From an uncultured Candidatus Woesearchaeota archaeon (lineage in GTDB: Archaea > Nanobdellota > Nanobdellia > UBA10117): 64,000 bases of DNA. Positions within the stretch are counted from its first letter, which is position 1, and the number at the start of each line of letters is the position of its first letter. The stretch lies in assembly GCA_903864915.1 (NCBI GenBank), contig CAIPHS010000007.1:15146-79145 (forward strand), given 5' to 3'. Both the position numbers and the translations under genes were made by a program. Below, piece after piece: positions 6,410 to 60,225 of this stretch. The notes under the pieces were generated by a model. It did no database searches. It was not told the origin of the DNA and saw nothing but the letters and a program-made list of their open reading frames with translations.

Positions 6410-7515
6410 CTTCCCCCACGAGTGGATAGCTTGCGCTTAGGTCGCTTTGCAACGAAAAACAAAACCAGACCGATAACAGCAAAAAGCAGCAGGGATATTG
6501 CGCTTAATGAAAGCGGCACTGCTTTCTGCGCTTCTACATTGATTTGCTGCTCCGCTGTTGCTGATTTGTCAAATATGACATAACCCCTAATCTCATAATT
6601 TCCAGATGCAGATGTTGTAAAGTATGTTGTCAGATTTGCAGTCTGGCCTGAAGCCACAATAACCTTATCACTTTCCACTTGTTCAGTTTGCAAATCATTT
6701 TTTACATTGGCTTTAAGTTGTGCTAGCACAGCATTTGCGCCCGTATTTTCAAAAACTGCGGTAATTATTGCTGGCTTGCCAACTTCCAAGCTTGAAATTT
6801 GAAGATTTTGCAGTTTGCCATCAGAAGATTTTCCTAGGCTTACAGGTATGCTTTCCTGCCTCAAAAGCTCGTTTCCAACATAAACTGAAGCTTTTACAGT
6901 GTAAACGTTACTAGATAATGAGTTTGCTGGAAGTTTGGTCTCTATCGTTGCAGTTCTGCTAGGTAAGATTTCAACATCAGTCGTATCGGCGCTTAGTTGC
7001 GCATCTTGCAATTCGAGAGATAACTTTGGAGTTATGTTTAAATTGCCAGTATTCTCAACATCTGCCAGGCCAACAATCTTGCCATCTTGCTCAAAAACTT
7101 CTATGCTATTGACTTGTGCCTGAATAATCTGCTTTTGAGTAACTTCGATTAGAACTTTTGTTGTCTGCGCAGGCCCGATATAGCCTGTTGCGCTATCAGA
7201 ATTTGGCTGGTCTGTAATTACGTACGCGATGTAAGTTCCGGGCAAGGCTTCTGCAGGAGGCTTCACCATGACTCTGGCCTTTAGCGGGAAGTTGGCATTT
7301 GCATAACCTTGCGACGGACTTACAACAATCCATTTTGCTGCGGGACCTGCGGTTGACAGAATAATAGCGGTAGACTCGTTAGAAGTTATTGGAAGTGTGA
7401 TTTCTGAAAATCCACCAGGCAAAACATTCTCAAATCTCAAGTCCACCGGAGCTGTTAAGGCGTAACTGCTGCCAAAAATAAAAAGGAGAGCTAGCAATGC
7501 CCAGTACTTTTGCAT
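6385..7515 (-). CDS. cell-surface protein with signal peptide and C-terminal TM anchor (S-layer-like)
   Basis: N-terminal MQKYWALLALLFIFGSSYALTA. C-terminal LSAISLLLFAVIGLVLFFVAKRPKRK. Confidence 0.55.
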   Translation of the reverse strand: MQKYWALLALLFIFGSSYALTAPVDLRFENVLPGGFSEITLPITSNESTAIILSTAGPAAKWIVVSPSQGYANANFPLKARVMVKPPAEALPGTYIAYVITDQPNSDSATGYIGPAQTTKVLIEVTQKQIIQAQVNSIEVFEQDGKIVGLADVENTGNLNITPKLSLELQDAQLSADTTDVEILPSRTATIETKLPANSLSSNVYTVKASVYVGNELLRQESIPVSLGKSSDGKLQNLQISSLEVGKPAIITAVFENTGANAVLAQLKANVKNDLQTEQVESDKVIVASGQTANLTTYFTTSASGNYEIRGYVIFDKSATAEQQINVEAQKAVPLSLSAISLLLFAVIGLVLFFVAKRPKRKLSTRGGRWHSPKKK

Positions 7516-9061: not shown

Positions 9062-9843
9062 TGCATACCTAAATTATAAAGAGCCTCAAGTGACTTCACA
9101 AAACTCTTGTTAGCTATCCAGATTCCCAAGTCTCTGCCATAATGCATGCTGTCATCATCAGGCACAGGCTCAATAAACAATGCATTCTTGTCATCTGCCA
9201 CAATCAAAGTGCTGTGTGCCTTGTCCACATGCTTGCAAGTGCAGCCATTCAGATGCGGGAAAGACTTGTCAACTCCGAACGGAGCCATGATATTTACTTT
9301 TACACCACGGGATTTGGCAGCCTGGATGTGCTGTGCCATGAGCTGCAATCTGTCAAGCCCTGCGGCAGTCGTGACTATGCAAACTTTTTTCTGGGCATTC
9401 TCTATAATTTCCTGAGCTTTCTGATTTACCGCAGACCTGCCGTTCAGTATCCAAAAATTATTTTGCGGCTCGTTGAATTTCTTGTGCTTGCTGAACAAAG
9501 GCTCCAGCTGGTCAATCAGCAATGATTCTATTTTTGAAAGCTTGTCCTGCGTAGTTTTCTTGATTCGCACCAGGCTCTCCTTCGGAGAAATTGCAGAATA
9601 TTTTGCAGGCTTGGTGGGCAAGATTTGAACAAAACCTTTTCTCGCCAAGCTGTCGATAACCTCATACACCTTGCCGTAAGGTATGCTCGTTATACTACTG
9701 ATGGTTTTTGCAGTTGTCACACCTTCAGAAATCAATGATAAGTAAACCCTGGCCTCATAGCGATTCAATCCCAATTCTAATAATGTGGATTCTACCGCCT
9801 GCTGGCCAGATTTGACGCCAATCTCAGATAAGTTCTGGGCCAT
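9058..9843 (-). CDS. TrmB family transcriptional regulator
   Basis: N-terminal LGLNRYEARVYLSLISEGVTTAKTISSITSIPYGKVYEVIDSLARKGFV is the TrmB winged HTH. Confidence 0.8.
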   Translation of the reverse strand: MAQNLSEIGVKSGQQAVESTLLELGLNRYEARVYLSLISEGVTTAKTISSITSIPYGKVYEVIDSLARKGFVQILPTKPAKYSAISPKESLVRIKKTTQDKLSKIESLLIDQLEPLFSKHKKFNEPQNNFWILNGRSAVNQKAQEIIENAQKKVCIVTTAAGLDRLQLMAQHIQAAKSRGVKVNIMAPFGVDKSFPHLNGCTCKHVDKAHSTLIVADDKNALFIEPVPDDDSMHYGRDLGIWIANKSFVKSLEALYNLGMH

Positions 9844-10020: not shown

Positions 10021-10506
10021 TTACTCAGCGTCAGCTGCTACAACCGGTAATAACATATTGCAAACCGGCACGGCAAAGGCTGTGCATGATTGAGCTGTTA
10101 CAACATTTACTCTCGCAACATCGCCGAATTGCAGGTCACAGGAATAACTTGCTGCGCCAGTAACCGTCAATTCCGCGCCACTTATGTCCATATATTTGGT
10201 ACCTTGGTAACTAGATATAGTTTGTACTCTCATTCTCAGCTGGTTTACGTAAATTGTGTCTGTCGCGCTATTTATTTGGCTTGGATTCACGTATGGCTTA
10301 TCAACGTTAACGAGGCCGTTATAGCTTACTGTGGTGAAACCGTCTGTTAAATAAAATGTGCCAACTACTACATTTCCATTAAATAACACTTCGCCTCCGC
10401 CACCGTCACAAGCAAGCACTGGCGCTGCACTAAATGCAAAAACAAGCGCCATGACTAAACTTCCCAATAAAATTTTTCTCTTTTCCATAGCAAAGAAAGT
10501 ATTCAT
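10021..10506 (-). CDS. secreted hypothetical protein
   Basis: Signal peptide ...LGSLVMALVFAFSAAPVLA. Confidence 0.5.
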   Translation of the reverse strand: MNTFFAMEKRKILLGSLVMALVFAFSAAPVLACDGGGGEVLFNGNVVVGTFYLTDGFTTVSYNGLVNVDKPYVNPSQINSATDTIYVNQLRMRVQTISSYQGTKYMDISGAELTVTGAASYSCDLQFGDVARVNVVTAQSCTAFAVPVCNMLLPVVAADAE

Positions 10507-10549
10507 AAGAACAAAATAAGCTTGCTTTATAAAACAAAAAAAGAGAAAA

Positions 10550-11767
10550 CTATTCTCTACTTTTCACAGATAATCTATCTAATTCTTGTAAATATTTTCT
10601 AGAATCATATTTCCAGGAAGTTGTTTTTGGGTCAAAAAGCTTGTGGTAATGTTGTTTAAGCCAGCCTTTAGTTTTGCCTTCCCAAAAATTCGAAGAATCT
10701 GCGTAGTCAAATAATATTGCCCTATTTACCCTCGTTTTTAACATGGCTTTGCTTATGTCCATAAATACATCTGCAACTAGTTTGCCGTTAGTAACTAATT
10801 CTATCGTAAAAAGATTACGAGGGTCTAAGCAATAAACTACAACGTGCAGAGATTTTTTTGAAATGGTTCTAATCAACTCTAATAAAGTCTGCTCATCTTT
10901 AAGTTTCAATATAAACTGCAAATTGATATTTTCGCGGTATAATGGCCCATAAGCAATACGTATCTGCTGAAGAAAATCTTCAGAGTTTTCGTGTAAATAC
11001 TTCAAAACTTGCTGAATACAACTTACACCTACACCTATCGTGTTTTTCCGTATTTTCAAGCCCTTAACAGATGGGCATTTTTTTGGCAAATAACATACAT
11101 CTTCTCCGAATTTCTCGTTCAATCTTTCCCAAATCTTACGCGGAGATGCAAAGTCTTTCAAGTATTCTGCAGCTGTTAAAACTACGAAAGGTGCGCTAAA
11201 CTTTGTTTTGCGCTCATTGTGCAAATTATCTTTTAGTAAATTTATGAAGCGATCATCGCATGTTTTGATAGCTTTAATGGTGCCGTTTGACGAAATCATT
11301 TCATGAAAAGGTGAATATAAAGCAGTTACGTGCTTAACTTTAAACACTGTGAAATCTTCTATGAGTTTTCTGCTTTTGGCGTCTCTCCAAAAATTACAGA
11401 ACTCTTGAAACATTTCATTAGGTATCTTATAATTAACAAAAAAGCATTCTTGGTGTGTTCTAAAATCAACACCTTTCATCAAGTATATTTTGTACGGGAT
11501 CACATCTAAAAGGGCAGGATTACGTAAGCCGTATACTGTTAAAGCCACACTACTCAAACCTAGCCGCTCAAATTTGATGCTTAGATGATATGTAAAATAA
11601 TGGTTTTCCCTTAGATGTTTGAGCCAACGTTTAATCGTTCTTTCAGAAACTTTTTTGCCCCGTATTGTTATGTTCTGGGCCATCTCCCGCGAATTCATCA
11701 GCTTTTTGTGTAAAGTCAGCCGGTAGATAAATTCGAGAAGTCGCTTATCAAATGCGTGAAGCACCAT
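10550..11767 (-). CDS. hypothetical protein with N-terminal HTH; markedly low-GC gene
   Basis: 405-aa intact ORF. MAQNITIRGKKVSERTIKRWLKHL is HTH-like. About 35% GC versus 42-45% in the flanks. Confidence 0.5.
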   Translation of the reverse strand: MVLHAFDKRLLEFIYRLTLHKKLMNSREMAQNITIRGKKVSERTIKRWLKHLRENHYFTYHLSIKFERLGLSSVALTVYGLRNPALLDVIPYKIYLMKGVDFRTHQECFFVNYKIPNEMFQEFCNFWRDAKSRKLIEDFTVFKVKHVTALYSPFHEMISSNGTIKAIKTCDDRFINLLKDNLHNERKTKFSAPFVVLTAAEYLKDFASPRKIWERLNEKFGEDVCYLPKKCPSVKGLKIRKNTIGVGVSCIQQVLKYLHENSEDFLQQIRIAYGPLYRENINLQFILKLKDEQTLLELIRTISKKSLHVVVYCLDPRNLFTIELVTNGKLVADVFMDISKAMLKTRVNRAILFDYADSSNFWEGKTKGWLKQHYHKLFDPKTTSWKYDSRKYLQELDRLSVKSRE

Positions 11768-11856
11768 CCCTCCATTACTAGCATGTACGGCGATTTAAGC
11801 CTTTAGTTTAGTCTTGCAAATAAATTCTTATATATGTGTTCTAGGAGAGTAGCAGC

Positions 11857-42761: not shown

Positions 42762-42834
42762 ATGGGCTTATAGCCCCATCGTCCAGCGGTCAAGGATACG
42801 AGGCTTTGGACCTCGGGACATCGGTTCGAATCCG
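42762..42834 (+). tRNA. tRNA-Gln (anticodon TTG)
   Basis: Hand-folded: acceptor AGCCCCA/TGGGGCT, D-arm GTCC-AGCGGTCAA-GGAT, anticodon arm CGAGG-CTTTGGA-CCTCG, T-arm ATCGG-TTCGAAT-CCGGT, discriminator A. No encoded CCA. Confidence 0.8.
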
Positions 42835-42844
42835 GTTGGGGCTA

Positions 42845-45269: not shown

Positions 45270-45467
45270 CTAGTCCTTCTTGTATCGAGCCACGATGTCT
45301 ATTAAGTCTATGTGACCCAAAAACAGTGCTCGGCAGCAGTATCTCTTAATACCTAATTTGTCAAGCACTTCTTTTGCAGGCTCTCCTTTAGCAACTCTTT
45401 CCTTAAATTGCTCCCACAAATGCGCTACTGGTTTTCCGCAACTAAAACAACGAATCGGAATTATCAT
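45270..45467 (-). CDS. rpoN: DNA-directed RNA polymerase subunit N (Rpo10)
   Basis: MIIPIRCFSCGKPV...YCCRALFLGH zinc motif. 65 aa. Confidence 0.85.
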   Translation of the reverse strand: MIIPIRCFSCGKPVAHLWEQFKERVAKGEPAKEVLDKLGIKRYCCRALFLGHIDLIDIVARYKKD

Positions 45468-45509
45468 AATATTGTTGGTAAATTGCTGGCTTTTAAAAGC
45501 TTTGGTTTT

Positions 45510-45526
45510 AGGGGCTTTATAAAGCC
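45510..45526. promoter_or_regulatory. fully palindromic TATA element GGGGCTTTATAAAGCCC between divergent rpoN and cassette gene 1
   Basis: 16-nt perfect palindrome containing TTTATAAA. About 45 nt upstream of rpoN and about 105 nt upstream of the 45629 start. Confidence 0.4.
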
Positions 45527-45628
45527 CTTTTTAAGAGCCAAACCACCGAAACCCTTTTAAACACAATATAGCAATTAATGTATAACTAATACATACAATA
45601 TAGACAACACATCCATATTGAAACTAAA

Positions 45629-45934
45629 ATGGCAAACCCAAAAGACGCTGTAAAAGAAACGCTAAGTGCATTCTTAGCTGGTGCTATGCCTGCCCCACAG
45701 GCTGTTGCAACCATAGACAAAATGATTGGCGGGATTACAGGATTTATCTACAAAGATGGTCTTAAGTTCACTATTCAGAACCTAATGCAGCGTTTTTCTT
45801 GCCCACTCCCTCAAAGCAAATACGAACAGAAACTCTTTGTCGAAGAGCTAGTCCCTGAACTGCAAAGCTACTGCAACGGCATGGGACAGGCCCACATCTC
45901 AAAGTACCAATCAACAAAGCATCATTGCGCTTAG
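45629..45934 (+). CDS. cassette gene 1, hypothetical protein
   Basis: CTAAAATG start context. 101 aa. Confidence 0.45.
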   Translation: MANPKDAVKETLSAFLAGAMPAPQAVATIDKMIGGITGFIYKDGLKFTIQNLMQRFSCPLPQSKYEQKLFVEELVPELQSYCNGMGQAHISKYQSTKHHCA

Positions 45935-45942
45935 GAGAAAAA

Positions 45943-46350
45943 ATGGCAACCTCACAACTTCGAACACTGGAAAATTTGAAAACGCAGGTAGAACGTCCTA
46001 TAAACAGCCCGACTACGGAAGAGACAAAGTATTCTAGCAAGCAGCCTTTTGATCCTGTAAGCGCTGCTGCTTCATTCCACCGCGCTTTGCCTGAAGGTAA
46101 ATATAAAGATGCTACTTACTGCATACTAAAGACCCTTGCCAAAGGCGAGTATGATCTAGAATCTGTCGCAGGTAACTTAATGACGGATTTAGATTCAGCA
46201 GATCCTGGCAAATCTAGACCTGCACTCAACACCTTGCAGCACATTCTATCTTTGTACGATGTGAGCATACCCCCAACCGACCCGGATGGTCCGGTCATTG
46301 AGAAAATGCGTGAGGCTGTAGACATATACCAAATGATAAACGGAGACTAA
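45943..46350 (+). CDS. cassette gene 2, hypothetical protein
   Basis: AGGAG SD then ATG 45943. The ORF-track start 45925 is the alternative. Confidence 0.45.
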   Translation: MATSQLRTLENLKTQVERPINSPTTEETKYSSKQPFDPVSAAASFHRALPEGKYKDATYCILKTLAKGEYDLESVAGNLMTDLDSADPGKSRPALNTLQHILSLYDVSIPPTDPDGPVIEKMREAVDIYQMINGD

Positions 46351-46351
46351 A

Positions 46352-46891
46352 ATGTTAACTATCAAAAAAATCCAGCCAAGGAAAGCAAATAAAGGTGTTT
46401 TGCTAGATGCAAATGTCTTCATCGATGCTGAGCAAGATAAACCTTTAGCCATACAAATATTAAAAGCTGCAGAAGACAATTACTTTTCAGAAAATCCAAA
46501 ATTCGCATTTTACACAACAAATCAAGCCATACAAGAGCTTTATAGGCTAGAACCAAAAATCGAAAGCTTTGGAATTTTTATAACTCCAATAAATATTACT
46601 AATACCGATGCTGTTATTGATAGTATACGTAATGGCGCCAGCTCTACAGATAAGGGCTTGCTTCAAGCCTTAGCAACAAACAAAGACGTTGATACTTTAG
46701 TAACTGAGGATAGACATCTATGGAATCCAGATATTCTAAATTTTGTTAGAACTCATTATCAAAAACCAGTCCAAATTTTTAATCAAAACCGTTTTGTAGA
46801 AAAGTTTCTGCAACCCCAAGAAGTGAATCATCAGGGTTTTGAAAAGATTGAGGCCTATTTGCAGGCCAAAGGCAAATTTGTAGGAGGTTAA
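46352..46891 (+). CDS. cassette gene 3, PIN-domain-like protein
   Basis: VLLDANVFIDAE N-terminal acidic motif. LVTEDRHL. Junction CGGAGACTAAAATG. Confidence 0.45.
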   Translation: MLTIKKIQPRKANKGVLLDANVFIDAEQDKPLAIQILKAAEDNYFSENPKFAFYTTNQAIQELYRLEPKIESFGIFITPINITNTDAVIDSIRNGASSTDKGLLQALATNKDVDTLVTEDRHLWNPDILNFVRTHYQKPVQIFNQNRFVEKFLQPQEVNHQGFEKIEAYLQAKGKFVGG

Positions 46892-46892
46892 A

Positions 46893-47219
46893 ATGACAAC
46901 TGAAATGAAAACTGAAAATAAACAATGGGATGAAACGAGGGACCTTGTCGACAAGGTAACTCGAAATATAAAAGACGGCAAGAAAGACGAAGCCAAAACT
47001 TTGATTGGCGATTTTGCGAAATCTGGCAGTCTTGGCTATTTTACGGCGCACTTATTGAAGCGCGTTGGGGAACATAGATCTGCTGCTGTAAAAGGATTCG
47101 AAGCTGGCACGCCGCGCGACATAGCAAGAGAGATGTACGAAATGCTAGCACAAGAATTAGAACAGGCTGGCAGAACAGAAGACGCCCAGATTTATCGCAA
47201 CGGTTCAACTTACTTGTGA
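46893..47219 (+). CDS. cassette gene 4, hypothetical protein
   Basis: Junction AGGAGGTTAAAATG. Confidence 0.45.
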   Translation: MTTEMKTENKQWDETRDLVDKVTRNIKDGKKDEAKTLIGDFAKSGSLGYFTAHLLKRVGEHRSAAVKGFEAGTPRDIAREMYEMLAQELEQAGRTEDAQIYRNGSTYL

Positions 47220-47226
47220 GTTTGCA

Positions 47227-47568
47227 ATGACTGATTGGAGAGATATCGGGCACGAGTGCATGAAGCACAACGACTACCAGCACGCCATCATAGCCTATGC
47301 GAAAGCTGGTGAAACTAAACTACTCTACAATCTTGGAGATTATCTCATAAAAGAGAGTAATATTGATTTAGCTAAGGTTGCTTATCACTCTGCTCTAAAG
47401 TCAGAACCAGACGAAGTTCTTGAAAAAAAGTTAGAGTTGCTGTTGGATGAGGATGACAAGGTCAAAAACAACGGCCGCGACCCAATAACTCTCACACGCC
47501 TTGACACTTCGATAAATGTTATTCTCAAAATTCTTGACGAGCGCGATGGAATAAAGGAGGCCAGCTAA
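47227..47568 (+). CDS. cassette gene 5, TPR-like helical repeat protein
   Basis: HAIIAYAKAGETKLLYNLGDYLIKESNIDLAKVAYHSAL is TPR-like. Confidence 0.4.
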   Translation: MTDWRDIGHECMKHNDYQHAIIAYAKAGETKLLYNLGDYLIKESNIDLAKVAYHSALKSEPDEVLEKKLELLLDEDDKVKNNGRDPITLTRLDTSINVILKILDERDGIKEAS

Positions 47569-47569
47569 A

Positions 47570-48145
47570 ATGGTACTCGAAGATTTAATGCCTGTCTCTC
47601 GTGATGCTGAAAAATTAGCTCTGGCCAAGCAAGTGCAATCTCAAATAGATAGTATGTCTTATATCCCACATATTCTTAACCCAAAAGCAAAAGATACGAT
47701 GTATCGGTATCTAAGAAACGCTTTAGAAATTAAAAATGACCTGAGAGATGGAAAAAAGTACTCTAACTGTCTTGAAGGTGCTATTTATGCGGCATACCGC
47801 ATGTGGACTGAAGAGGGCATACAGCCAAGACTGTTAGTAATATACAACGATTTGGACCTTAAAGAATCTGCACATGCAGTTTGCATTTTTGAATGCGGTG
47901 GAAAATTTTACAGCGTTGGCCAGTCAAGACATCCAGAATTAAAGGGTAAATTAAAACCGTATGATTCTGTTGAAGAACTAGCTGATGTTTACAAGCAAGA
48001 ATTAACACTAAAAGGTTATCACCCTGTTGGGCACACCATCCGCAATCTCGATGTTAGCAAAAAAGAGATTGGACAGAAAGATACTGAATGCTGGCTAACC
48101 GGCAATGCAGAGAACCTGGTAACTGAAATATTGGAGGCCAGCTAA
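47570..48145 (+). CDS. cassette gene 6, putative papain/transglutaminase-like cysteine peptidase
   Basis: SNCLEGAIYAAYRMW (Cys) ... SAHAVCIFECGGKFY (His). Junction GGAGGCCAGCTAAAATG on both sides. Confidence 0.35.
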   Translation: MVLEDLMPVSRDAEKLALAKQVQSQIDSMSYIPHILNPKAKDTMYRYLRNALEIKNDLRDGKKYSNCLEGAIYAAYRMWTEEGIQPRLLVIYNDLDLKESAHAVCIFECGGKFYSVGQSRHPELKGKLKPYDSVEELADVYKQELTLKGYHPVGHTIRNLDVSKKEIGQKDTECWLTGNAENLVTEILEAS

Positions 48146-48146
48146 A

Positions 48147-48875
48147 ATGACAGTCAGCGGCCTTGAAGACAAGATAAATACTGCTAAGGATTTCCTTGTC
48201 AAGCTCGGCAAAGTCAGGAACCGTAAGTCTCTGACAGACCTAATTAATGATTATTTCAGCAACAGCACTTCGCAAAAAGCCATGCAGTCTGACATCCCTT
48301 ATGCAATTGCAAGGGTGATTGAAGCTTATGCAGATCTTAAGCCCGAAGAAAGAACAGTAAAACTAATAGTCATAGATGACCTAAACAAGCTTTACCTTGA
48401 TGTTATAAAGACAAAAAAATTCCTAGGAGTCAGCGCAGAAGATGTTGCCACGCAGGCAAGTGACGCCTACATTGTTTCGCGCAAGGAAGCCTTAACAGCC
48501 CTTGCAACTGAGGACTTGATGAGAGGCAATGCCCTTTCTGCAATAGAAAAATTCTGTGATGCTTACAAATCATCTAACCCTAAGCGCGAACAGTCAGCAA
48601 ATGACCTGAAAGCCGCTGTAATAGACTTCGAGAAAGACGGAGAAATAGGGATATTTATAAAAAAATACTGCCTTGCGGGCGGTAATGTTATCGATTATTT
48701 CAGCCAGGAGAAAAACAAGGAAATTCTCCAAAAGCTGCGCAAAGAAAGCGGCGATAATGTTGTTGAGGCTTGCCTGCACGACAATCAATTGGTGAATGGC
48801 AAAGCAACGCAATACTGGACAATCCAGCATGGGCTGGCCGACCAGCTTTACGAGCATCTGGAGGCTGCAAAATGA
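48147..48875 (+). CDS. cassette gene 7, hypothetical protein
   Basis: 242 aa. Junction CTGGAGGCTGCAAAATGA. Confidence 0.45.
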   Translation: MTVSGLEDKINTAKDFLVKLGKVRNRKSLTDLINDYFSNSTSQKAMQSDIPYAIARVIEAYADLKPEERTVKLIVIDDLNKLYLDVIKTKKFLGVSAEDVATQASDAYIVSRKEALTALATEDLMRGNALSAIEKFCDAYKSSNPKREQSANDLKAAVIDFEKDGEIGIFIKKYCLAGGNVIDYFSQEKNKEILQKLRKESGDNVVEACLHDNQLVNGKATQYWTIQHGLADQLYEHLEAAK

Positions 48876-49105
48876 TGTCTTCCGAAGATGATTGCAAGGA
48901 AAGTTTTGTAATGCCTTCAAAGAAAGAAGGCATCAGCGTATGTGCCAACAGAGCGATGTGCATATACCAAAGCAAGGACTATGCCGATGCTGAAAAGCCG
49001 CTGGAAGTCAAATACTGGAATGGCCCGATATCATACTCTTCATTGCCAATCTGCAAGATCTACAGCCCAGCCATCCAAAATAGCAACGGGAACGGTGCAA
49101 AATGA
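48872..49105 (+). CDS. cassette gene 8, small Cys-containing protein (77 aa)
   Basis: ATG 48872 overlaps the upstream stop. 4 Cys. The ORF track shows an N-terminally extended version (48770). Confidence 0.4.
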   Translation: MMSSEDDCKESFVMPSKKEGISVCANRAMCIYQSKDYADAEKPLEVKYWNGPISYSSLPICKIYSPAIQNSNGNGAK

Positions 49106-50184
49106 AACATACAAATGGCTTAGAGAACATAGCATCCTGCGCCATAATTGTGCCTGCTTACAACAAAGCACCATACATAGACAGGACATTTGAAAATTTA
49201 TCTGCTCTTGCTAAGCAAGGCTACAAGACAATCATAGTTGATGATGCTTCTACTGATGGTACAAGATCAAAGATACAGCAATATGCTGCAGCTCATCCAG
49301 AAATTCAGGCACTATACATGCAATCCAACGGCAAGAAAGTTGGAGCGCAGAAATATGCCCTTGAAAACTTGCCTGAAGGAATAGACACTGTAATAATGCT
49401 TGACTCAGATTCTTTTATCAAAAACCCAGAAGCCATACCAAGAGTCATCAATGGACTAAATGCAGACAGGAAACTAGCTGGCGGCGTTTTCAAGCTTGAA
49501 CCTGAGGGAAAGGGCTTTTGGAAACAGTTCCAGGACGTAGAATACGCTATGGCTTCCGGCTTCAAGCGCTGGACTTCGCAAATTGGCAAGTTGAGATGCG
49601 CTGCTGGAGCTGGTGCAATTTACAAGAGAAAACCACTGGAAGCTGCCCTGAGAAGCCACACTGGCGAATTCATAGGTGATGATTTCGAATTAACAACTAT
49701 CGTGCAAGACAAAGGTCACAGCATGAGGTATATCCCAAAAGTGAAAGTTGGAACATATGTTCCTGAAACTTACAAGGAAAAAGTCCTGCAACTTGAAAAA
49801 TGGCTCCGTGGCGGTTGGCGCGTATGGGCTGACAAGACCAACGAGCTAACAAAGCAGCTTGCGAGCACAGACAGGCTTTCGCTTACACTGGGCCTGGAAC
49901 TTTTGGCTCCGGCTACATTAAGCTCAACAATATACGGAATTGCTAATGCTGCCCATAACCTGGGCTTCAGCAAGACATACTTAGCATCAATGGCTGGATG
50001 GTCAGCACTTAACGCAGGCATAGCAAAATACGGCGGAGCAGACAACAAGACAATCGCAAAAACTGTTGCATTCACGCCAGTCTGGCCAGTATATGCAATA
50101 ACCACATACCTGCCAGCGGCAATAATGGCTGCAGGCAAGCTGGCAAAAGACAGGCTGTTCAAGCGCAAGAAGGTGGCAACATGA
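49102..50184 (+). CDS. cassette gene 9, membrane-anchored family-2 glycosyltransferase (synthase-like)
   Basis: IIVPAYNKAPYIDRTFENLSALAKQGYKTIIVDDASTDGT. LDSDS (DxD). GFKRW (QxxRW-like). C-terminal TM helices. Confidence 0.75.
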   Translation: MKHTNGLENIASCAIIVPAYNKAPYIDRTFENLSALAKQGYKTIIVDDASTDGTRSKIQQYAAAHPEIQALYMQSNGKKVGAQKYALENLPEGIDTVIMLDSDSFIKNPEAIPRVINGLNADRKLAGGVFKLEPEGKGFWKQFQDVEYAMASGFKRWTSQIGKLRCAAGAGAIYKRKPLEAALRSHTGEFIGDDFELTTIVQDKGHSMRYIPKVKVGTYVPETYKEKVLQLEKWLRGGWRVWADKTNELTKQLASTDRLSLTLGLELLAPATLSSTIYGIANAAHNLGFSKTYLASMAGWSALNAGIAKYGGADNKTIAKTVAFTPVWPVYAITTYLPAAIMAAGKLAKDRLFKRKKVAT

Positions 50185-50567
50185 AACCTACTTACTTCTG
50201 CGGCGTTATTGAAGATGAAAATGGCTGGAAATACATCTGCCCCATGTACAGAAAACTTGGCCCTGTTGCGATATGGATTGGGGAAGAAAAATCCCGCGAA
50301 GTAATCGATGACTTCGAAGACAATTTTACTAATTACAACGTAGAAACACTTCATGTTGACAAATCAAGGGTAAACAAATTCGGAATCATAGGATTTTCCA
50401 GAAACCCTAAAGCAAAACTTGAATTGCCAAAGAGAAATCTGGAAGAACTGATTAGCATGTTCGATGAAAGTGTTGCCCAGCAGGCAACAGGCCCAGACAT
50501 GCCGAGAAAATGGAAGATGCATTTCGAGGGCAGCGCAATAATCCAGGAGCCGAGGTACAAGACATGA
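50181..50567 (+). CDS. cassette gene 10, hypothetical protein
   Basis: ATGA overlaps on both ends. Confidence 0.45.
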   Translation: MKPTYFCGVIEDENGWKYICPMYRKLGPVAIWIGEEKSREVIDDFEDNFTNYNVETLHVDKSRVNKFGIIGFSRNPKAKLELPKRNLEELISMFDESVAQQATGPDMPRKWKMHFEGSAIIQEPRYKT

Positions 50568-50848
50568 TACTTTTTGCAGAACAAAAGCCAACTGTGCGGA
50601 AGCAAAAGAAGCTTGCTAAGTCTGAACTAGAAAAAATCTGCGCGGAAGGCTATGCCGTTCCAAGCTTTAACACCTGGACTAACAAGCCAGGAACATTTTG
50701 CAGAAAAGAAATAGGAACATGCATGGGCCAGTCAACGGAAAATGACAAAATAGTATCCTATGGCGTTGTCATAGACGGCGAACACTACTGCCTACCTCTT
50801 TGCATGTTTGCACCAGATTATCACCAAAGCAAGGGAGCCAAAAAATGA
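50564..50848 (+). CDS. cassette gene 11, small Cys-rich protein (94 aa, 6 Cys)
   Basis: Start at MILFAEQ by GAGGT SD and ATGA overlap. The ORF-track start 50510 is the alternative. Confidence 0.4.
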   Translation: MILFAEQKPTVRKQKKLAKSELEKICAEGYAVPSFNTWTNKPGTFCRKEIGTCMGQSTENDKIVSYGVVIDGEHYCLPLCMFAPDYHQSKGAKK

Positions 50849-51486
50849 CACCTTCTGAAGTAACAAGGCAGGATTTGGAAGCTCTAGTTAGCAAGGCTAA
50901 TGAGCTTGCCAAAGAAATGGGCTTGACTTTACACTTAGACCCATCAAAGATAAATCTTCAACCCGGCGATAATGTACATGGCAATTATAACGAAGATGAC
51001 AATAATATCACTCTAAATTACGACCAAAAAGGCATTTTTGACCAGGACTTAATCAAGATATTAGTACATGAAGGTACTCATGAAAAGTTCGATAAAGAAA
51101 TTGTCCCAAATTGTAAAAATTACATTACTAAATGCTATATTAGCGCGCTTTTTGATGAAAATCTGGCTTACGCAGTACAATTCTTTTTTGATGCTGAAAT
51201 CTATACTCAGGGATTAGGCTCAAAAAATCCCGAAGTATTCAGACAAACTAACTGCCATTACCCACAATTAGGATATGCAATAGCAAAAGCCTGCAAAAAT
51301 GGCATGAAGATGGATGAAATTTTTGACAAAGTAAAGACCATACAGCTTTCTGATGATCCAAAATATCCATCAGCTATTGTAGCCAAATTTATCAGAGATG
51401 ATTTAGGCATAAAGCTGACTGATGTTTTTGAAAAAGAAAATGCAAACAAATATGAGCGCTGTATTGCGGCGGAGGCTGCACAATGA
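50845..51486 (+). CDS. cassette gene 12, putative HExxH metallopeptidase-like protein
   Basis: LVHEGTHEKFD (HExxH). Start at MTPSEV by GGGAG SD. Confidence 0.4.
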   Translation: MTPSEVTRQDLEALVSKANELAKEMGLTLHLDPSKINLQPGDNVHGNYNEDDNNITLNYDQKGIFDQDLIKILVHEGTHEKFDKEIVPNCKNYITKCYISALFDENLAYAVQFFFDAEIYTQGLGSKNPEVFRQTNCHYPQLGYAIAKACKNGMKMDEIFDKVKTIQLSDDPKYPSAIVAKFIRDDLGIKLTDVFEKENANKYERCIAAEAAQ

Positions 51487-51620
51487 CAACCTTCAGGATT
51501 ACCAAGAGGATAGCCAAGCATGGCAAGCAGGCCATCATAGTTATTCCAAAGGTCCTGCAGCAGATGCTCAAGCCAAATACAATTGTCGAGCTGCAGATAA
51601 AGGTCCTGGAGGCCTGCTGA
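51483..51620 (+). CDS. cassette gene 13, AbrB/MazE-type swapped-hairpin DNA-binding protein (45 aa)
   Basis: MTTFRITKRIAKHGKQAIIVIPKVLQQMLKPNTIVELQIKV. Absent from the ORF track (the track lists a different frame, 51422..51625). Confidence 0.5.
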   Translation: MTTFRITKRIAKHGKQAIIVIPKVLQQMLKPNTIVELQIKVLEAC

Positions 51621-51621
51621 A

Positions 51622-52521
51622 ATGACAAAGAAAAAACAAAATAAGGATTTGGAAGAAATGATTGCTGAGCAAAGACCTTTAGATAAATTAGACCTGACAA
51701 TCAAATTACCCAATGATGTTTACCTAAATGTAAAAGACATATTAGAAAATAAAGCTGGATTTTTGTTATCAACAAGGTTGGGACAGCTTGAATATCGTCA
51801 ATTTAGATATGGATTAGGTAATGATGAGATAACATTCCCAGGTCAAACTTACTTAATGATGCCTCACCTGTTTAAAAACCCAAATAATCTGGAAGGCCAT
51901 AACTATAAAAAAATTCCGCCCTTTGACAACGGCGATTTAGCAAAAAAGATTGCACATAGTGATATTGTATTACTTATGAAATTGCCAGAAACAAAAGGCA
52001 ACAAACCATTCGTAGCTGCGTATTATTATCTAGGTCACGATTACAAATCAAGGCAGGCAATGGCAGCAAACATAATGTTTTTGAATGAGAAAGAATTTGG
52101 AGTTATTAGCAAGATTCTGAAAGACAATCCGGAATACGCACATGATATTTTCTATAAGATGCCAATACTGGCTGCCAAAAAATCTTTAGCAACTATGGAT
52201 GAGCAAACATTAAACCAAGTCTATAATGGTTATGGACATAGTGGAGCTAGCTTAGATGACAGAGCTGCACAGCTAGCCGCAATTTATTACGCAGATTACA
52301 AGGAATATGTATCCAAACTAAATCATGACTCAACTGCCGTAAATAAAATTCTTGACGACCCTAAGACGCCTGAATGGATGAAAGAAAGTTTAATGAAAAG
52401 TTATGGCGGCGTCAGGCCATCTATAGACAAAGGTTCACCAAGCCATAATAGAAAAATTACAGTAGTTGAATGGAAAGACGGCAAGCTGAATGTTTATGAG
52501 CAGAAGAAAGAGGGCAGCTGA
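51622..52521 (+). CDS. cassette gene 14, hypothetical protein
   Basis: 299 aa. Junction GGAGGCCTGCTGAAATG upstream. Confidence 0.45.
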   Translation: MTKKKQNKDLEEMIAEQRPLDKLDLTIKLPNDVYLNVKDILENKAGFLLSTRLGQLEYRQFRYGLGNDEITFPGQTYLMMPHLFKNPNNLEGHNYKKIPPFDNGDLAKKIAHSDIVLLMKLPETKGNKPFVAAYYYLGHDYKSRQAMAANIMFLNEKEFGVISKILKDNPEYAHDIFYKMPILAAKKSLATMDEQTLNQVYNGYGHSGASLDDRAAQLAAIYYADYKEYVSKLNHDSTAVNKILDDPKTPEWMKESLMKSYGGVRPSIDKGSPSHNRKITVVEWKDGKLNVYEQKKEGS

Positions 52522-52522
52522 A

Positions 52523-53236
52523 ATGGCACTTGAAGATCATATTCAAAAGGTGGGTACTAACCGAATAGAAATTACCAATATGACTGCTTTTGGTGCAGAG
52601 CTTACAAAAGCTCTATCTGAGTTATTTAACATAAAAGGGAATTACAAAATACCAATTTTAACAGAAGAGGAATATGCCGAACTTGAACCAGATCGTTGTA
52701 TGTACTGTTTAATTCGTTTCACCAGCTGTTTTGATGAGGATTTAAAATCCGTAATGCTTGTAAACACAGACAAACATAATCCGTGCGTATATGGTGAAGA
52801 ATTAACACACGGACTGGTATGTAATGCTAGACCAGGTACAGATTTGAGCGTAGATGAATTTTTTGGTTTTCTTGGACAGAAAGCAACATATAAAATACTA
52901 AGAAATTACCAGCCACAGTTGCACCTGCCATCATTAAACGATATCATAGACTGGTTCAATCGCAGCAAATGCAAATATGAACGTGATGAAATATATAAAA
53001 TTGATTTAGACCGCACAACAGGTGGTTTAGTGGCAGGCATAGCAGCCCCTGTTGCACTAGAAGATAAAAAACTGTTTAGCAGGTCTGACGAGGAAATAAA
53101 GCATATCTACTTTGAGCCGGTACTTAATTGTGATTGGCCAAAATATTGGGAAGGCAAGCCTGACTGGTGGCGTCTCGGAGAAAAGTGCGCAGAAATTAAC
53201 AGAGAGATAAAGAAGAGAATGCAAGAGGCCAGCTGA
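52523..53236 (+). CDS. cassette gene 15, hypothetical Cys/His-containing protein
   Basis: Start MALEDH by GAGGGCAGCTGAAATG junction. The ORF-track start 52490 is the alternative. Confidence 0.45.
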   Translation: MALEDHIQKVGTNRIEITNMTAFGAELTKALSELFNIKGNYKIPILTEEEYAELEPDRCMYCLIRFTSCFDEDLKSVMLVNTDKHNPCVYGEELTHGLVCNARPGTDLSVDEFFGFLGQKATYKILRNYQPQLHLPSLNDIIDWFNRSKCKYERDEIYKIDLDRTTGGLVAGIAAPVALEDKKLFSRSDEEIKHIYFEPVLNCDWPKYWEGKPDWWRLGEKCAEINREIKKRMQEAS

Positions 53237-53237
53237 A

Positions 53238-53711
53238 ATGGCACGAAGGATGACGCCTGTTGAAGAGAAAGAAATCAAGGACTTGAGGCGGCAAAATCTG
53301 TCATACGCTGAAATAGCAAAGCTGACTGGATTTGGCAAAGAAGTAATCCGCTATCATACTGACGAGAAAACGCAATCAAATGCAAAGCATTACGCAAGCA
53401 AATATTTTAGCCAAGAAAAAATCAGATCCAAGGAAAACGCCAGGCAAAAAGCAATTCGTCATCTCGATTCCCACGTAGTAAATCTGCTTGCTTCATGCAG
53501 AAGCGACATGAATATCCCTGAAATGAGGAAAAGCCTCGAGGAAAGGCTGGGCATAAAATTCTCTGAATATTTTGAGAACAAGATTGACGTCATAGTCAAA
53601 GATTTCATCAAATTGGGCAAAAACTCCCCAGTAGTCTGCACTGAAAATTACCGTTATAGGATAAACAGGAATTCCCCATACTACAAGGCATATTTGGAAG
53701 GGAAAAACTAA
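53238..53711 (+). CDS. cassette gene 16, HTH (sigma-70 region-4/LuxR-like) protein, paralog of gene 17
   Basis: RRQNLSYAEIAKLTGFGKEVIRYH. C-terminal YRYRIN block shared with gene 17. Confidence 0.45.
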   Translation: MARRMTPVEEKEIKDLRRQNLSYAEIAKLTGFGKEVIRYHTDEKTQSNAKHYASKYFSQEKIRSKENARQKAIRHLDSHVVNLLASCRSDMNIPEMRKSLEERLGIKFSEYFENKIDVIVKDFIKLGKNSPVVCTENYRYRINRNSPYYKAYLEGKN

Positions 53712-53712
53712 T

Positions 53713-54174
53713 ATGGCAAAGCTAATTGATGATACTTTGATGGAAAGGATACTAGAACTAAGGAAAGAAGGACTATCTGGCATAAAAATAGGTCGCACAT
53801 TGAACGTCAATGAAAAGAGAGTATACTATTACATGAATGCTGGAATGAGGCAGCACATAAGAGAAAGGATGGGCAATTACAATCACAAGTCAGAAGTCGA
53901 AAGGAAAAGAAAAGTCATAAACGATCTTCAGAACAGAATTATCGAAGCATTTGACGACGATTACATGTCAGCGTATCAGATTAGAACAAACATAGAAAAC
54001 AAATATAACCTAAGTCTTTCTGCTGACTTCGAAGATAAAATTGAAGAAGCGATAGTGGATTTCGCGAATGAACTTGGCAGAAACACACCAATAAAAATGT
54101 TAAGACCTTTTGGATATCGCATTAATACGAAATCAACTCATGCGCTCCTTTGTGGTGAGCCTGTTGAGGGCTAA
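53713..54174 (+). CDS. cassette gene 17, HTH protein, paralog of gene 16
   Basis: RKEGLSGIKIGRTLNVNEKRVYYYM. C-terminal FGYRINTKS. Confidence 0.45.
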   Translation: MAKLIDDTLMERILELRKEGLSGIKIGRTLNVNEKRVYYYMNAGMRQHIRERMGNYNHKSEVERKRKVINDLQNRIIEAFDDDYMSAYQIRTNIENKYNLSLSADFEDKIEEAIVDFANELGRNTPIKMLRPFGYRINTKSTHALLCGEPVEG

Positions 54175-54516
54175 ATGGTGATTGAAAACTTCCTTGGTAA
54201 TGCAAAAGTCATTGACGTACGTGATTTTCCGGGTTGGCTAGATGAATTCAGAGCATATGTTGCGAACTTGCCTGATGAAATCAGCAAGCTGAGACAAAGG
54301 GAAAGGGATGCCAGATACGCCCTTGAAATGAACGGCCTTTATGATGCTGTCGAGAACGTAACAGACCGTCAAAAGCGAGAAAGGCTTCAGGGCCTAGCCT
54401 TAATTCTTGGAGATTTGCACTTCAAGAGATGTGATGATAATAAAGCCTGGCAAAAATACGAAACATTCTTGGCAAAATACAAAGAACAGGTAGAAAAAGC
54501 AAAAGTTTATCTGTAA
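54175..54516 (+). CDS. cassette gene 18, hypothetical protein
   Basis: TAAATG junction. 3' end overlaps the convergent rpsI by 10 nt. Confidence 0.45.
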   Translation: MVIENFLGNAKVIDVRDFPGWLDEFRAYVANLPDEISKLRQRERDARYALEMNGLYDAVENVTDRQKRERLQGLALILGDLHFKRCDDNKAWQKYETFLAKYKEQVEKAKVYL

Positions 54517-54917
54517 GACTTCTGCCTCTTGGCCCTTGCTCTTGAGTGTGTGCCTGCCTTCTTTGGTTCTTTCCTTCTTGTGTCTGCAACCATCAAGAAC
54601 CTGTCATAATCAATGAATGTCTTCTTCAGCTGGTCAGAGCCTGTGTAAACAACAAGTGCCTTTGCTATTGCAAGCCGGGCAGCTTCTGCCTGTGAGCTCC
54701 AGCCGCCGCCAACAACATTGATGTCTATGTTAACATCTGCAGCCATCGGGCCTGCTATCAGCAATGGTTCCCTTAATCGCAAGCGCGCAAACTCAGGCTC
54801 GTACAAATCAAGAGGTATTGAATTTATCTTAATTATACCGTTTCCAGGCCTTGCGGTAGCCCTTGCTACTGCTTCCTTCCTCTTGCCTGAAACGTGTACT
54901 ATTTTAGTAGCTGCCAT
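54507..54917 (-). CDS. rps9: 30S ribosomal protein S9
   Basis: C-terminal ...KKAGTHSRARAKRQKSYR. Confidence 0.9.
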   Translation of the reverse strand: MAATKIVHVSGKRKEAVARATARPGNGIIKINSIPLDLYEPEFARLRLREPLLIAGPMAADVNIDINVVGGGWSSQAEAARLAIAKALVVYTGSDQLKKTFIDYDRFLMVADTRRKEPKKAGTHSRARAKRQKSYR

Positions 54918-55694: not shown

Positions 55695-55772
55695 CTTCGA
55701 CTTTCACCTTTGAAACCAGCGAAATCCGCGAGGATTTCAGCGCGTTTCATCTTCGATTCCTATGAGCTTGAG

Positions 55773-55856
55773 TGCGGGAGACAGGGTTCGAACCTGTGTA
55801 CCCACTAAGGGACACGACCCTCGATCGTGCGAGTTTGACCGCTCCTCCACTCCCGC
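55773..55856 (-). tRNA. tRNA-Leu (anticodon GAG), class II with long variable arm
   Basis: Acceptor GCGGGAG/CTCCCGC. Anticodon arm CACGA-TCGAGGG-TCGTG. Variable arm. T-arm ACAGG-TTCGAAC-CCTGT. Discriminator A. Confidence 0.75.
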
Positions 55857-59496: not shown

Positions 59497-60225
59497 TTAG
59501 CCAGTTAAAAGACTTTCTTTCAGTCTTAAATATTTAACTTTGTGATTCAAACCTATTTCATTCAGAAATTTCTGTCTGCTCTTTTTCATAGATATTATCA
59601 AGATATGATTAACCGACCATTTTGGATTTTTGGGCGAATAACTATATATTTTAGATTCGATATGAAATAAAGACAAAAGTTTCTGTACATCTCGAATGCC
59701 TTTTTCATTTACGGTTTGCACCCTAATAACTTTACTAGTTATGTACCCTTCGGCATCAAAAAAAGCTCTTAGCCATTCCTTCAGCAATTGCTTACTATTC
59801 ATAATAAAACTCGGTATAGACCAGGTTTTAACACCAAAAGCAGCGTGTTTGAGTAAATCTTCGACCACTATTTTTGAATTAAAACGAACACTATAGAAAT
59901 TATTATGTTCTCTAATTGTTGGGGCTATATTATAAACTGTTTTAAGTGCGGCTATGAACGGCGATAACAATGATGAATGATCTGGATAAAACCCCACCTC
60001 ATTATGAAAACCGCGACCTTTCTCTTCGCGAATACCAACGTGACCATCACCTGCTAAATATCCAAATACTAGAGCTTTAAGACGTAATTTATTTTTAGAA
60101 TTATTATTTATCCGCGCTCGCTCTTTGGCTTGGCGTTTTTGCCAGTATGCAAGAACATTAGCTCTATTCCTCTCTCTAAATCGCATCTGATTATTAGGAA
60201 GGCGCAGTATTTTAATATAGCGCAT
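59497..60225 (-). CDS. double-motif LAGLIDADG homing endonuclease
   Basis: VFGYLAGDG (motif 1) and LRAFFDAEG (motif 2) about 95 aa apart. 242 aa. Confidence 0.65.
   Translation of the reverse strand: MRYIKILRLPNNQMRFRERNRANVLAYWQKRQAKERARINNNSKNKLRLKALVFGYLAGDGHVGIREEKGRGFHNEVGFYPDHSSLLSPFIAALKTVYNIAPTIREHNNFYSVRFNSKIVVEDLLKHAAFGVKTWSIPSFIMNSKQLLKEWLRAFFDAEGYITSKVIRVQTVNEKGIRDVQKLLSLFHIESKIYSYSPKNPKWSVNHILIISMKKSRQKFLNEIGLNHKVKYLRLKESLLTG

Follow-up and report, generated by a model that had tools for sequence, protein, structure and literature searches.

Our analysis of a 64,000-nucleotide (nt) stretch of the genome of an uncultured Candidatus Woesearchaeota archaeon (the whole of which we call the window, and whose numbering is used throughout) shows that a cassette of 18 same-strand, tightly packed genes, g1 through g18, carries a recurrent short sequence, here called the linker, at many of its gene junctions. 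The linker is confined to this cassette and its relatives in other genomes, its copies are homologous to one another, and gene gains, gene losses and the edges of recombination patches among these relatives fall at it. On balance it is probably a natural stop-and-restart signal within one long operon, in an inserted and fast-changing block of genes, and one that also serves as short homology for recombination. The cassette is about 9 kb long, and gene calls made independently on the source contig agree with its open reading frames. Its genes mostly lack homologues; those that can be recognised encode a TPR protein, a GT2 glycosyltransferase (the only PHROGs match in the cassette), an HExxH-containing protein and weak HTH paralogues. 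The cassette and its linker copies are as follows (below, W is the window's own cassette, and L-numbers denote loci of related or sister genomes):

45629-54516, + strand: cassette g1-g18, in which g5 is the TPR gene, g9 GT2, g12 HExxH and g16/g17 the weak HTH pair (Pfam)
46341-46354, + strand: loose linker (g2>g3), CGGAGACTAAAATG, with GGAG only; the upstream protein ends NGD
46882-46895, + strand: loose linker (g3>g4), AGGAGGTTAAAATG, which reads GGAGGTTAAAATG; the upstream protein ends VGG
47556-47572, + strand: linker copy 1 (g5>g6), GGAGGCCAGCTAAAATG; the unit runs on to 47583 (ATGGTACTCGAAGA)
48133-48149, + strand: linker copy 2 (g6>g7), the same 17-mer, which brackets g6 together with copy 1
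48860-48875, + strand: overlap-type linker (g7>g8), GGAGGCTGCAAAATGA, repeat family D5
51471-51486, + strand: overlap-type linker (g12>g13), GGAGGCTGCACAATGA, repeat family D5
51608-51624, + strand: linker copy 3 (g13>g14), GGAGGCCTGCTGAAATG, left border of variable slot 2
52509-52536, + strand: linker copy 4 (g14>g15), AGAGGGCAGCTGAAATG plus GCACTTGAAGA, 25/27 identical to the j>k junction of L009
53224-53240, + strand: linker copy 5 (g15>g16), AGAGGCCAGCTGAAATG, repeat family D1

An earlier note on this DNA had listed eight junctions as sharing an almost identical sequence, in which the upstream gene ends E-A-S/C with its last codons spelling the Shine-Dalgarno (SD) motif GGAGG, followed by TAA or TGA, a single A, and ATG. 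All eight sites exist, and the near-identity holds for five of them, the other three being looser. The five match GGAGGCCAGCTAAAATG with 0, 0, 2, 3 and 2 mismatches at 47556-47572, 48133-48149, 51608-51624, 52509-52525 and 53224-53240, respectively; only 0.29 matches with ≤3 mismatches are expected, five were reached in 0 of 100 shuffles, and these junctions make up the region's top direct-repeat family (D1). At all five the upstream stop is TAA or TGA, followed by one A and the ATG, and the upstream proteins end KEAS, LEAS, LEAC, KEGS and QEAS. The third of the looser sites, at 48858-48874, is in fact an ATGA overlap and not stop-A-ATG (its upstream protein ends EAAK), and with the junction at 51471-51486 it forms a second small repeat family, D5, of the form GGAGGCTGCA[A/C]AATGA. 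Two of the listed starts were off by one (46882 and not 46883, 53225 and not 53226), and the nine unlisted junctions, which had all been taken for ATGA overlaps, are such in five cases (49102, 50181, 50564, 50845 and 51483) and have gaps of +8, +7, +1 (TAA-T-ATG) and 0 nt in the other four. The g3>g4 linker AGGAGGTTAAAATG also precedes g4 in L003 through L007, after another upstream gene. Across the whole window the heptamer TRAAATG by itself shows no enrichment (36 occurrences versus 44 expected); at gene starts it is enriched.

Ten relatives of g18 and one of g14 are known, and the contigs with g18 relatives gave nine further cassettes (L001; L003/L004; L005/L006/L007; L008; L009/L010), while five short contigs (L019-L023) contain the cassette end only. 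When metagenomes and genome collections were scanned with a g18 alignment, L010 came up as a genuine further locus, beside two spurious ones. Protein clustering gives a backbone in the order b, g3, g4, g5, then g7, g11, c, g12, g13 and finally g18; g4, g7, g11, g12, g13 and g18 are conserved across cassettes and have no assigned function. The locus is found with natural divergence (62-100% identity per gene) in ENA, JGI, NCBI and Logan assemblies from different samples, and it is embedded among ordinary archaeal core genes. A synthetic construct or an assembly artefact, which the regular, "designed"-looking junctions might bring to mind, is thus extremely unlikely, and the word "engineered", which the earlier note used for the junctions, is misplaced, since naturally diverged versions occur in many independent metagenome assemblies.

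With ≤3 mismatches allowed, GGAGGCCAGCTAAAATG is present in 0-5 copies per cassette in the ten cassettes (L008 has none), and there are 0 copies in about 120 kb of cassette flanks and 0 in 53 kb of sister-genome DNA, about 170 kb in all. The 17-mer thus has no copies outside the cassettes in the window, the relatives' flanks or the sister genomes, and it is not simply the organism's preferred start context, the explanation that had been set beside the original proposal. For the 3' heptamer TRAAATG that explanation is in part correct: T[AG]AA directly precedes the ATG at 6 of 73 host gene starts versus 1.6% of all ATGs, and this part of the linker is therefore also a milder, host-wide context. 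The six host starts (1796, 9843, 15361, 20810, 56673 and 63913) mostly lack an adjacent preceding gene, and this organism may quite generally start its genes directly after a stop codon, in whatever frame, and AA.

Comparison with the nine related cassettes supports the idea that the junctions have a shared origin. The linker is a homologous DNA unit of 27-34 nt, roughly GGTYCTGGAGGSCAGCTRAAATGGTGCTTGAAGA, that was not re-invented at each junction; it spans the last four to six codons of the upstream gene and up to five first codons of the next, and it is found across at least 12 different gene pairs and up to five times per locus. The junctions L006 g5>g6 and L001 g14>k, whose genes differ on both sides, are identical in register at 25 of 27 positions (-13 to +14; GAGG[C/G]CAGCTGA[C/A]ATGGTGCTTGAAGA), and L005 g6>mer and L009 g13>j, again with different genes on both sides, at 22 of 23 (-20 to +3; GGT[T/C]CTGGAGGCCAGCTGAAATG). 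Likewise, the L009 j>k junction that matches linker copy 4 at 25 of 27 positions lies between genes unrelated to g14 and g15. The best junction-pair score was 21, compared to a maximum of 10 over 2,415 host gene-start pairs. Repeated paralogues were considered and rejected: only g16 and g17 are paralogous (E 1e-12), and hhalign finds no profile similarity (probability <3%) between gene families with common ends.

The synonymous codons of the linker are fixed. Its Ala is always GCC, a codon that makes up 20% of cassette Ala codons, and its Ser is always AGC (29%). In addition, CTGAAATG is retained where its TGA is out of frame (L003 e>18, L001 and L009 k>18), and at L003 d>e, as in L019, the upstream reading frame ends in a TGA overlapping the SD motif, leaving the rest of the linker as an untranslated spacer (these out-of-frame and spacer cases are L003.12, L003.13, L001.5 and L019). 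Such cases argue for conservation at the nucleotide (DNA or RNA) level and against a protein-level signal. It is true that at least seven unrelated families end E-[AG]-[SNC], that at least four (6, 15, k and 18) begin M-x-L/F/I-E/D-D/N, and that family 7 has G-L-E-D after four extra codons, as might be expected if C-terminal E-A/G-S and N-terminal M-x-L-E-D peptides served in sorting, processing or assembly; we nevertheless think this quite improbable, as the synonymous sites are fixed and the Glu is imposed by the position of the SD motif. Nucleotide-level conservation would also suit a repeated RNA processing site (cleavage leaving a short leader) or an operator for DNA-binding proteins of the cassette, CAGCTG is a palindrome, and among the products of the cassette are weak HTH proteins and a weak PIN-like one. 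This is very improbable, however, since RNA folding at the junctions shows no excess (mean -6.4 kcal/mol versus -6.6 for the rest of the cassette), most linker-bearing cassettes lack the PIN-like and HTH genes, and the TAA-type linker copies lack the palindrome.

When junctions are defined by the gene families on each side, there are 47 distinct ones across the cassettes. All 47 have ATG as the start codon; the gap is +1 (stop-N-ATG) in 25 and -4 (ATGA) in 14, and a -1 overlap never occurs, whereas among 46 same-strand host gene pairs in the window the +1 gap and the -4 overlap are found three times each. The stop-to-start distance lies within -8 to +6 nt at 15 of the 17 window junctions and at 42 of the 47 distinct ones, of which the -4 and +1 classes alone account for 39. 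A is present at -1 in 43/47 and at -2 in 41/47 (A at -1 in 19/69 host starts). G-richness is greatest from -13 to -8 (information 0.3-0.86 bit), and GGAGG or GAGGG, the putative SD core, is present in most of the junctions; SD-like motifs are found at 13 of 69 host starts. The host motifs are GAGGT(G/A), as the usual anti-SD predicts, and those of the cassette are GGAGGC or GAGGGC. As is typical of leaderless messages, a TATA-like box stands about 25-30 nt ahead of the ATG in many host genes; judged by eye, no consistent TATA-like box lies at the correct distance before the cassette junctions.

This anatomy suggests how the linker might work. The final codons of the upstream gene include the SD core (GGAGG/GAGGG), and 7-9 nt further on comes an ATG that lies 1 nt past the stop or overlaps it, so that a ribosome finishing one gene could restart on the next by termination-reinitiation, a process known from both archaea and bacteria, and in a host whose messages are otherwise mostly leaderless the SD motif would be used at cassette-internal starts. 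Leaderless-rich archaea use SD motifs mainly for re-initiation at adjacent genes (PMC6728339), and coupling requires overlaps or very short gaps, with -8 to +6 nt being indicative (Huber et al. 2023, PMC10666635). From the junction anatomy and this published archaeal work we infer translational coupling. "Obligate" coupling of the "whole cassette", as first proposed, exceeds the evidence, since two window junctions (+7 and +8 nt) fall outside the tight class. The linker would give stops in two of three frames (cTGAaaTGA if the next codon begins with A), an SD and a start, so a gene joined there should end and restart correctly in most frames. Its near-identical copies likely serve as homology for gene loss, gain and exchange; recombination between them could delete, insert or swap whole genes, each of which would stay translatable.

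The gene content of the cassettes varies in ways that bear on this. Three regions of W vary in this way:

47570-48145, + strand: variable slot 1 (between g5 and g7); g6 here, and g6+mer, mer, or g+h+mer in relatives
48872-50567, + strand: private block g8-g9(GT2)-g10, found in the window only
51622-54174, + strand: variable slot 2 (between the 45-aa g13 and g18); g14-g17 here, and nothing, g14+k, j+k, or 12-like+d+e in relatives

The suggestion that modules are shuffled at the linker is supported, in that alternative genes are flanked by it and gains, losses and recombination-patch edges coincide with it. Slot 2 has five different contents across the cassettes. In slot 1 the orders are g5-J-g6-J-g7 in W (with identical 17-mers), g5-J-mer-J'-g7 in L003 and g5-J-g6-J-mer-g7 in L005; g6, which is bracketed by linker copies 1 and 2 in W, is absent from L003 and L004, and an ancestor with both g6 and mer would give the W and L003 forms by the loss from each of one gene and one linker copy. 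Gene 12 is missing exactly ATG-to-ATG in L001 and L003. When W g14>g15 is compared to L001 g14>k, similarity continues 14 nt beyond the ATG into unrelated genes, and the private block has its end points on the GGAG of SD cores (CTGGAG/G at the left and CAGGAG/C at the right, as read from the sequences by comparison with the g7>g11 junction of L003, the slash marking the end point). The g18 leader [A/G]AACT[G/A]AAATG is kept after several different upstream genes, including a Ham1-like gene. The latter, a nucleoside-triphosphate pyrophosphatase of housekeeping type, lies directly upstream of g18 in three short contigs (for example L021, 12-389) and is joined to it by the linker-like GAAGAACTAAAATG. 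Members of the g12 family sit at different positions in different cassettes; L003 (7873-8889) has a longer (338-aa) relative of g12 (HExxH) after g13, not before it.

Closely related cassettes give a finer view. L005 and L006 are 97-100% identical, and the mismatches between them form three clusters: 6614-6827 (about 42% divergent), 6861-7386 (about 5%) and 9229-9332. The last two are separated by 1.8 kb with zero mismatches. Three of five cluster edges lie ≤15 nt from a junction, for which random placement has a probability of about 0.003, a rough estimate, and selection for intact genes could yield the same pattern. Identity per gene is similarly uneven: g5 of W is 95% identical to that of L005 and 77% to that of L006, and g11 of W and L003 are 70% identical versus about 90% for the host flanks.

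These patterns must be weighed against the idea that the linker is a translation signal only, with each junction shaped independently by selection and with gains and losses ending at gene borders since other rearrangements destroy genes. We regard this as rather unlikely, if less so than the other alternatives discussed here. It would account for a G-rich SD-like element and an A-rich -3 to -1 region at nearly every junction and for the mild enrichment of TRAAATG at host starts. An unrelated viral contig of high GC content has one copy of the 17-mer, also at a gene junction, and in phages this is how mosaic borders are usually explained (PMC3029335). On the other hand, the 25/27 identity covers the beginning of unrelated coding sequences up to their fifth codon, the choice of synonymous codons is constant and runs counter to codon usage in the cassette, and coupled junctions of the host (e.g., in the ribosomal protein operon) have GAGGT-type SDs and lack the motif. 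The spacer CCAGC, moreover, is not a continuation of the canonical anti-SD complement (GGAGGTGATC), which also counts against a purely translational role. If selection for intact genes were all that acted, neither the extended identity nor the fixed synonymous sites would be accounted for, and we infer that recombination uses the linker and is not merely tolerated there.

Several points nevertheless tell against a linker with this double function. Selection alone could place breakpoints at gene borders, where only intact genes survive, and the breakpoints are in fact at varying positions (the SD core, the ATG or about +14). The sample comprises only about six independent cassette types, several loci being near-duplicates, and the TRAAATG part of the linker is, as noted above, shared with host starts. 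The CCAGC segment might conceivably pair with the 3' end of the 16S rRNA in the ribosome as well. Finally, a dominant +1 gap and an absent -1 overlap are unusual among described coupled pairs, and coupling at +1 spacing in this uncultured lineage is a suggestion that comes from sequence.

We also considered that the linker might be the dedicated site of a site-specific recombinase, in an integron-like platform whose enzyme is one of the conserved function-unassigned proteins (g4, g7, g11, g12, g13 or g18). Promoterless same-strand genes arrayed at a fixed place in the chromosome after a single conserved promoter region, with a repeat at the borders and variable content, would suit such a platform, but it is improbable given that Pfam and PHROGs found no integrase or recombinase domain (and no IntI-type tyrosine recombinase in the cassette or its flanks), that breakpoint positions vary, and that the junctions have no non-coding spacer and no inverted repeats. 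No attC-like inverted repeats were found at the junctions, where most gaps are 1 nt or negative and there is no excess folding. For g18, the universally conserved gene of the cassettes, AlphaFold gives a model (pLDDT 80.6) that is simply a bundle of helices and has no significant match in structure (none in the PDB better than E 1.5). Its resemblance to the diversity-generating retroelement accessory protein Avd is weak and non-significant, no reverse transcriptase is present, and this assignment was rejected. A bolder and unlikely possibility is that the linker is the working part of an undescribed DPANN gene-cassette system, an adaptor for both the expression and the capture, loss and exchange of genes. 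In such a system the 27-34-nt adaptor, with its two-frame stop, SD and start, would guarantee expression of any inserted gene, and exchange would proceed by host short-homology recombination or by an unrecognised enzyme from among the conserved function-unassigned genes. If true, it would be a functional analogue of the integron without integrase or attC.

The cassette lies between two genes of the archaeal core, as follows:

45270-45467, - strand: rpoN (RNA polymerase subunit N), left host flank (PF01194, E 3e-28)
45468-45628, no strand: intergenic region between rpoN and the first cassette gene, with TATA-like TTTTAAAA and CTTTTAAAC boxes and the palindrome GGGCTTTATAAAGCCC
54507-54917, - strand: rps9 (ribosomal protein S9), right host flank (PF00380)

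The upstream flank encodes an ELP3-like enzyme, TFIIE-alpha, an M50 protease and RNA polymerase subunit N, and the downstream flank is a ribosomal protein/RNA polymerase cluster (S9, L13, L18e, RpoD, S11, S4, S13). The nearest named S9 proteins are from Candidatus Nanoarchaeia (identity ≤77%), and one g18 homologue carries the label DPANN group archaeon. In sister genomes L016 and L018 (S9 77% and 69% identical) the genes for rpoN, the M50 protease and TFIIE come immediately after rps9, so the cassette is an insertion that splits the S9-RpoN cluster, in the opposite orientation. Its base composition is no different from that of the host. Among loci with a readable flank rps9 abuts the cassette in L003-L008 and L021, and the rpoN side is readable in L003-L007; the context of L009 and L010 differs, with the cassette lying between genes for an EF-Tu-like GTPase and a class II aminoacyl-tRNA synthetase. 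A third sister Nanoarchaeia genome, L017, which shares its sample with L003, has between rps9 and rpoN a single gene on the same strand (10478-11800; 440 aa, no Pfam match), and in this group insertions may recur in the rps9/rpoN gap. The g18 and rps9 genes are convergent and their 3' ends overlap by 10 nt (54507-54516), which leaves no space for a terminator; in L009 and L010 g18 overlaps the similarly convergent synthetase gene by 14 nt.

The intergenic region of about 160 nt between rpoN and the cassette is nearly identical in W, L003, L005 and L006 despite differing first cassette genes, and it is likely a divergent promoter and leader region. It contains GGGCTTTATAAAGCCC at 45512-45527, a perfect 16-nt palindrome with a TATA-like core, which is kept in L005 and L006 and has one mismatch in L003 (GGGCCTTATAAAGCCC); it might act as an operator or as a bidirectional promoter element common to both sides. 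Within the cassette, g16 and g17 (53238-54174) lie in tandem and are paralogous (22% identity, E 1e-12), their N-terminal part weakly matching HTH_38, and the pair is present in L008 too. Two other gene assignments were rejected: g13 as an AbrB-like protein has no Pfam match, and g3 as a PIN domain has only sub-threshold PIN_3 matches (E 0.1; 0.004 for the L009 homologue). The tRNA-Gln gene at 42772-42844, the sole Rfam match in the window at the gathering threshold, was rejected as an integration site, as host core genes separate it from the cassette. ARAGORN finds an 85-nt tRNA-Leu(GAG) at 55772-55856 (- strand), between the L18e and RpoD genes. Elsewhere in the window, a free-standing LAGLIDADG_3 homing-endonuclease-like gene (59497-60225, - strand) lies between genes for an FAD-dependent oxidoreductase and a peptidyl-prolyl isomerase, and in L003-L006 the interval downstream of the S13 operon holds other genes (radical SAM/SPASM, CAP-domain) and is thus a second variable spot.

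Module exchange driven by border sequences is an old idea for which clear natural examples are rare, and the boundary sequence found here is unusually explicit, repeated many times and coincident with a translation restart signal. It suggests how a very small genome might keep a plug-and-play slot in which new genes are expressed on arrival. The block is fast-changing and lineage-specific, and it splits L13-S9-RpoN, which is among the most conserved of archaeal gene clusters. As these organisms are thought to live attached to other cells, it is a candidate for functions in host interaction or conflict. The linker also offers a defined sequence for the study of +1-spacing termination-reinitiation in archaea.

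The junctions share with known termination-reinitiation pairs the same-strand genes, a stop and start within a few nt, an SD inside the 3' end of the upstream gene (PMC6728339, PMC10666635), and SDs at internal genes while first genes look leaderless. They differ in that +1 (stop-A-ATG) leads (25/47) with no -1, whereas in surveys of prokaryotes -4 and then -1 are commonest, and in that the linker is a near-identical extended sequence and more than an SD. With viruses, plasmids and islands of archaea the cassette has in common its insertion relative to sister genomes, its two chromosomal contexts, and its small, dense, homologue-poor genes with ATGA overlaps, small putative DNA-binding proteins and a GT2. 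Unlike them it has no integrase, capsid, replication or packaging gene, att repeats or tRNA target (Pfam and PHROGs found no integrase or capsid gene in the cassette, and no convincing flanking repeat was found), and both its site and its promoter region have been kept in genomes that have diverged. An origin as a virus or provirus was rejected, since PHROGs matched only the GT2 and a search of viral contigs with g14 was empty; tblastn of g7 against phages and of g12 against plasmids gave no matches, and scans of viral contigs gave three single, unrelated matches to the 17-mer and none to the 27-mer. Integron arrays are similar in having one promoter region, same-orientation genes of varied content, a fixed site and border repeats, but here there is no integrase, attC hairpin or non-coding recombination site, the repeat lies within coding sequence, and the crossover varies. 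For the exchange of genes the parallel is with the short conserved boundary sequences proposed for mosaic phages in the Susskind-Botstein model and exemplified by gp68 of mycobacteriophage Island3 (PMC3029335), although in phages such sequences are absent from most mosaic borders and seldom seen in practice (PMC3029335). As in that model, short homologies stand at the borders of interchangeable genes, similarity breaks off at these borders, and a gene can be bracketed by a direct repeat of its neighbour's end; in these cassettes the same short sequence lies between non-homologous genes, and alternative genes lie within the same borders with breakpoints there. The differences are that this is a chromosomal island of a DPANN archaeon and that its boundary doubles as a stop, SD and start signal. 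The locus would thus combine coupled gene pairs with modular exchange mediated by a boundary sequence, and appears to be a new variant of both.

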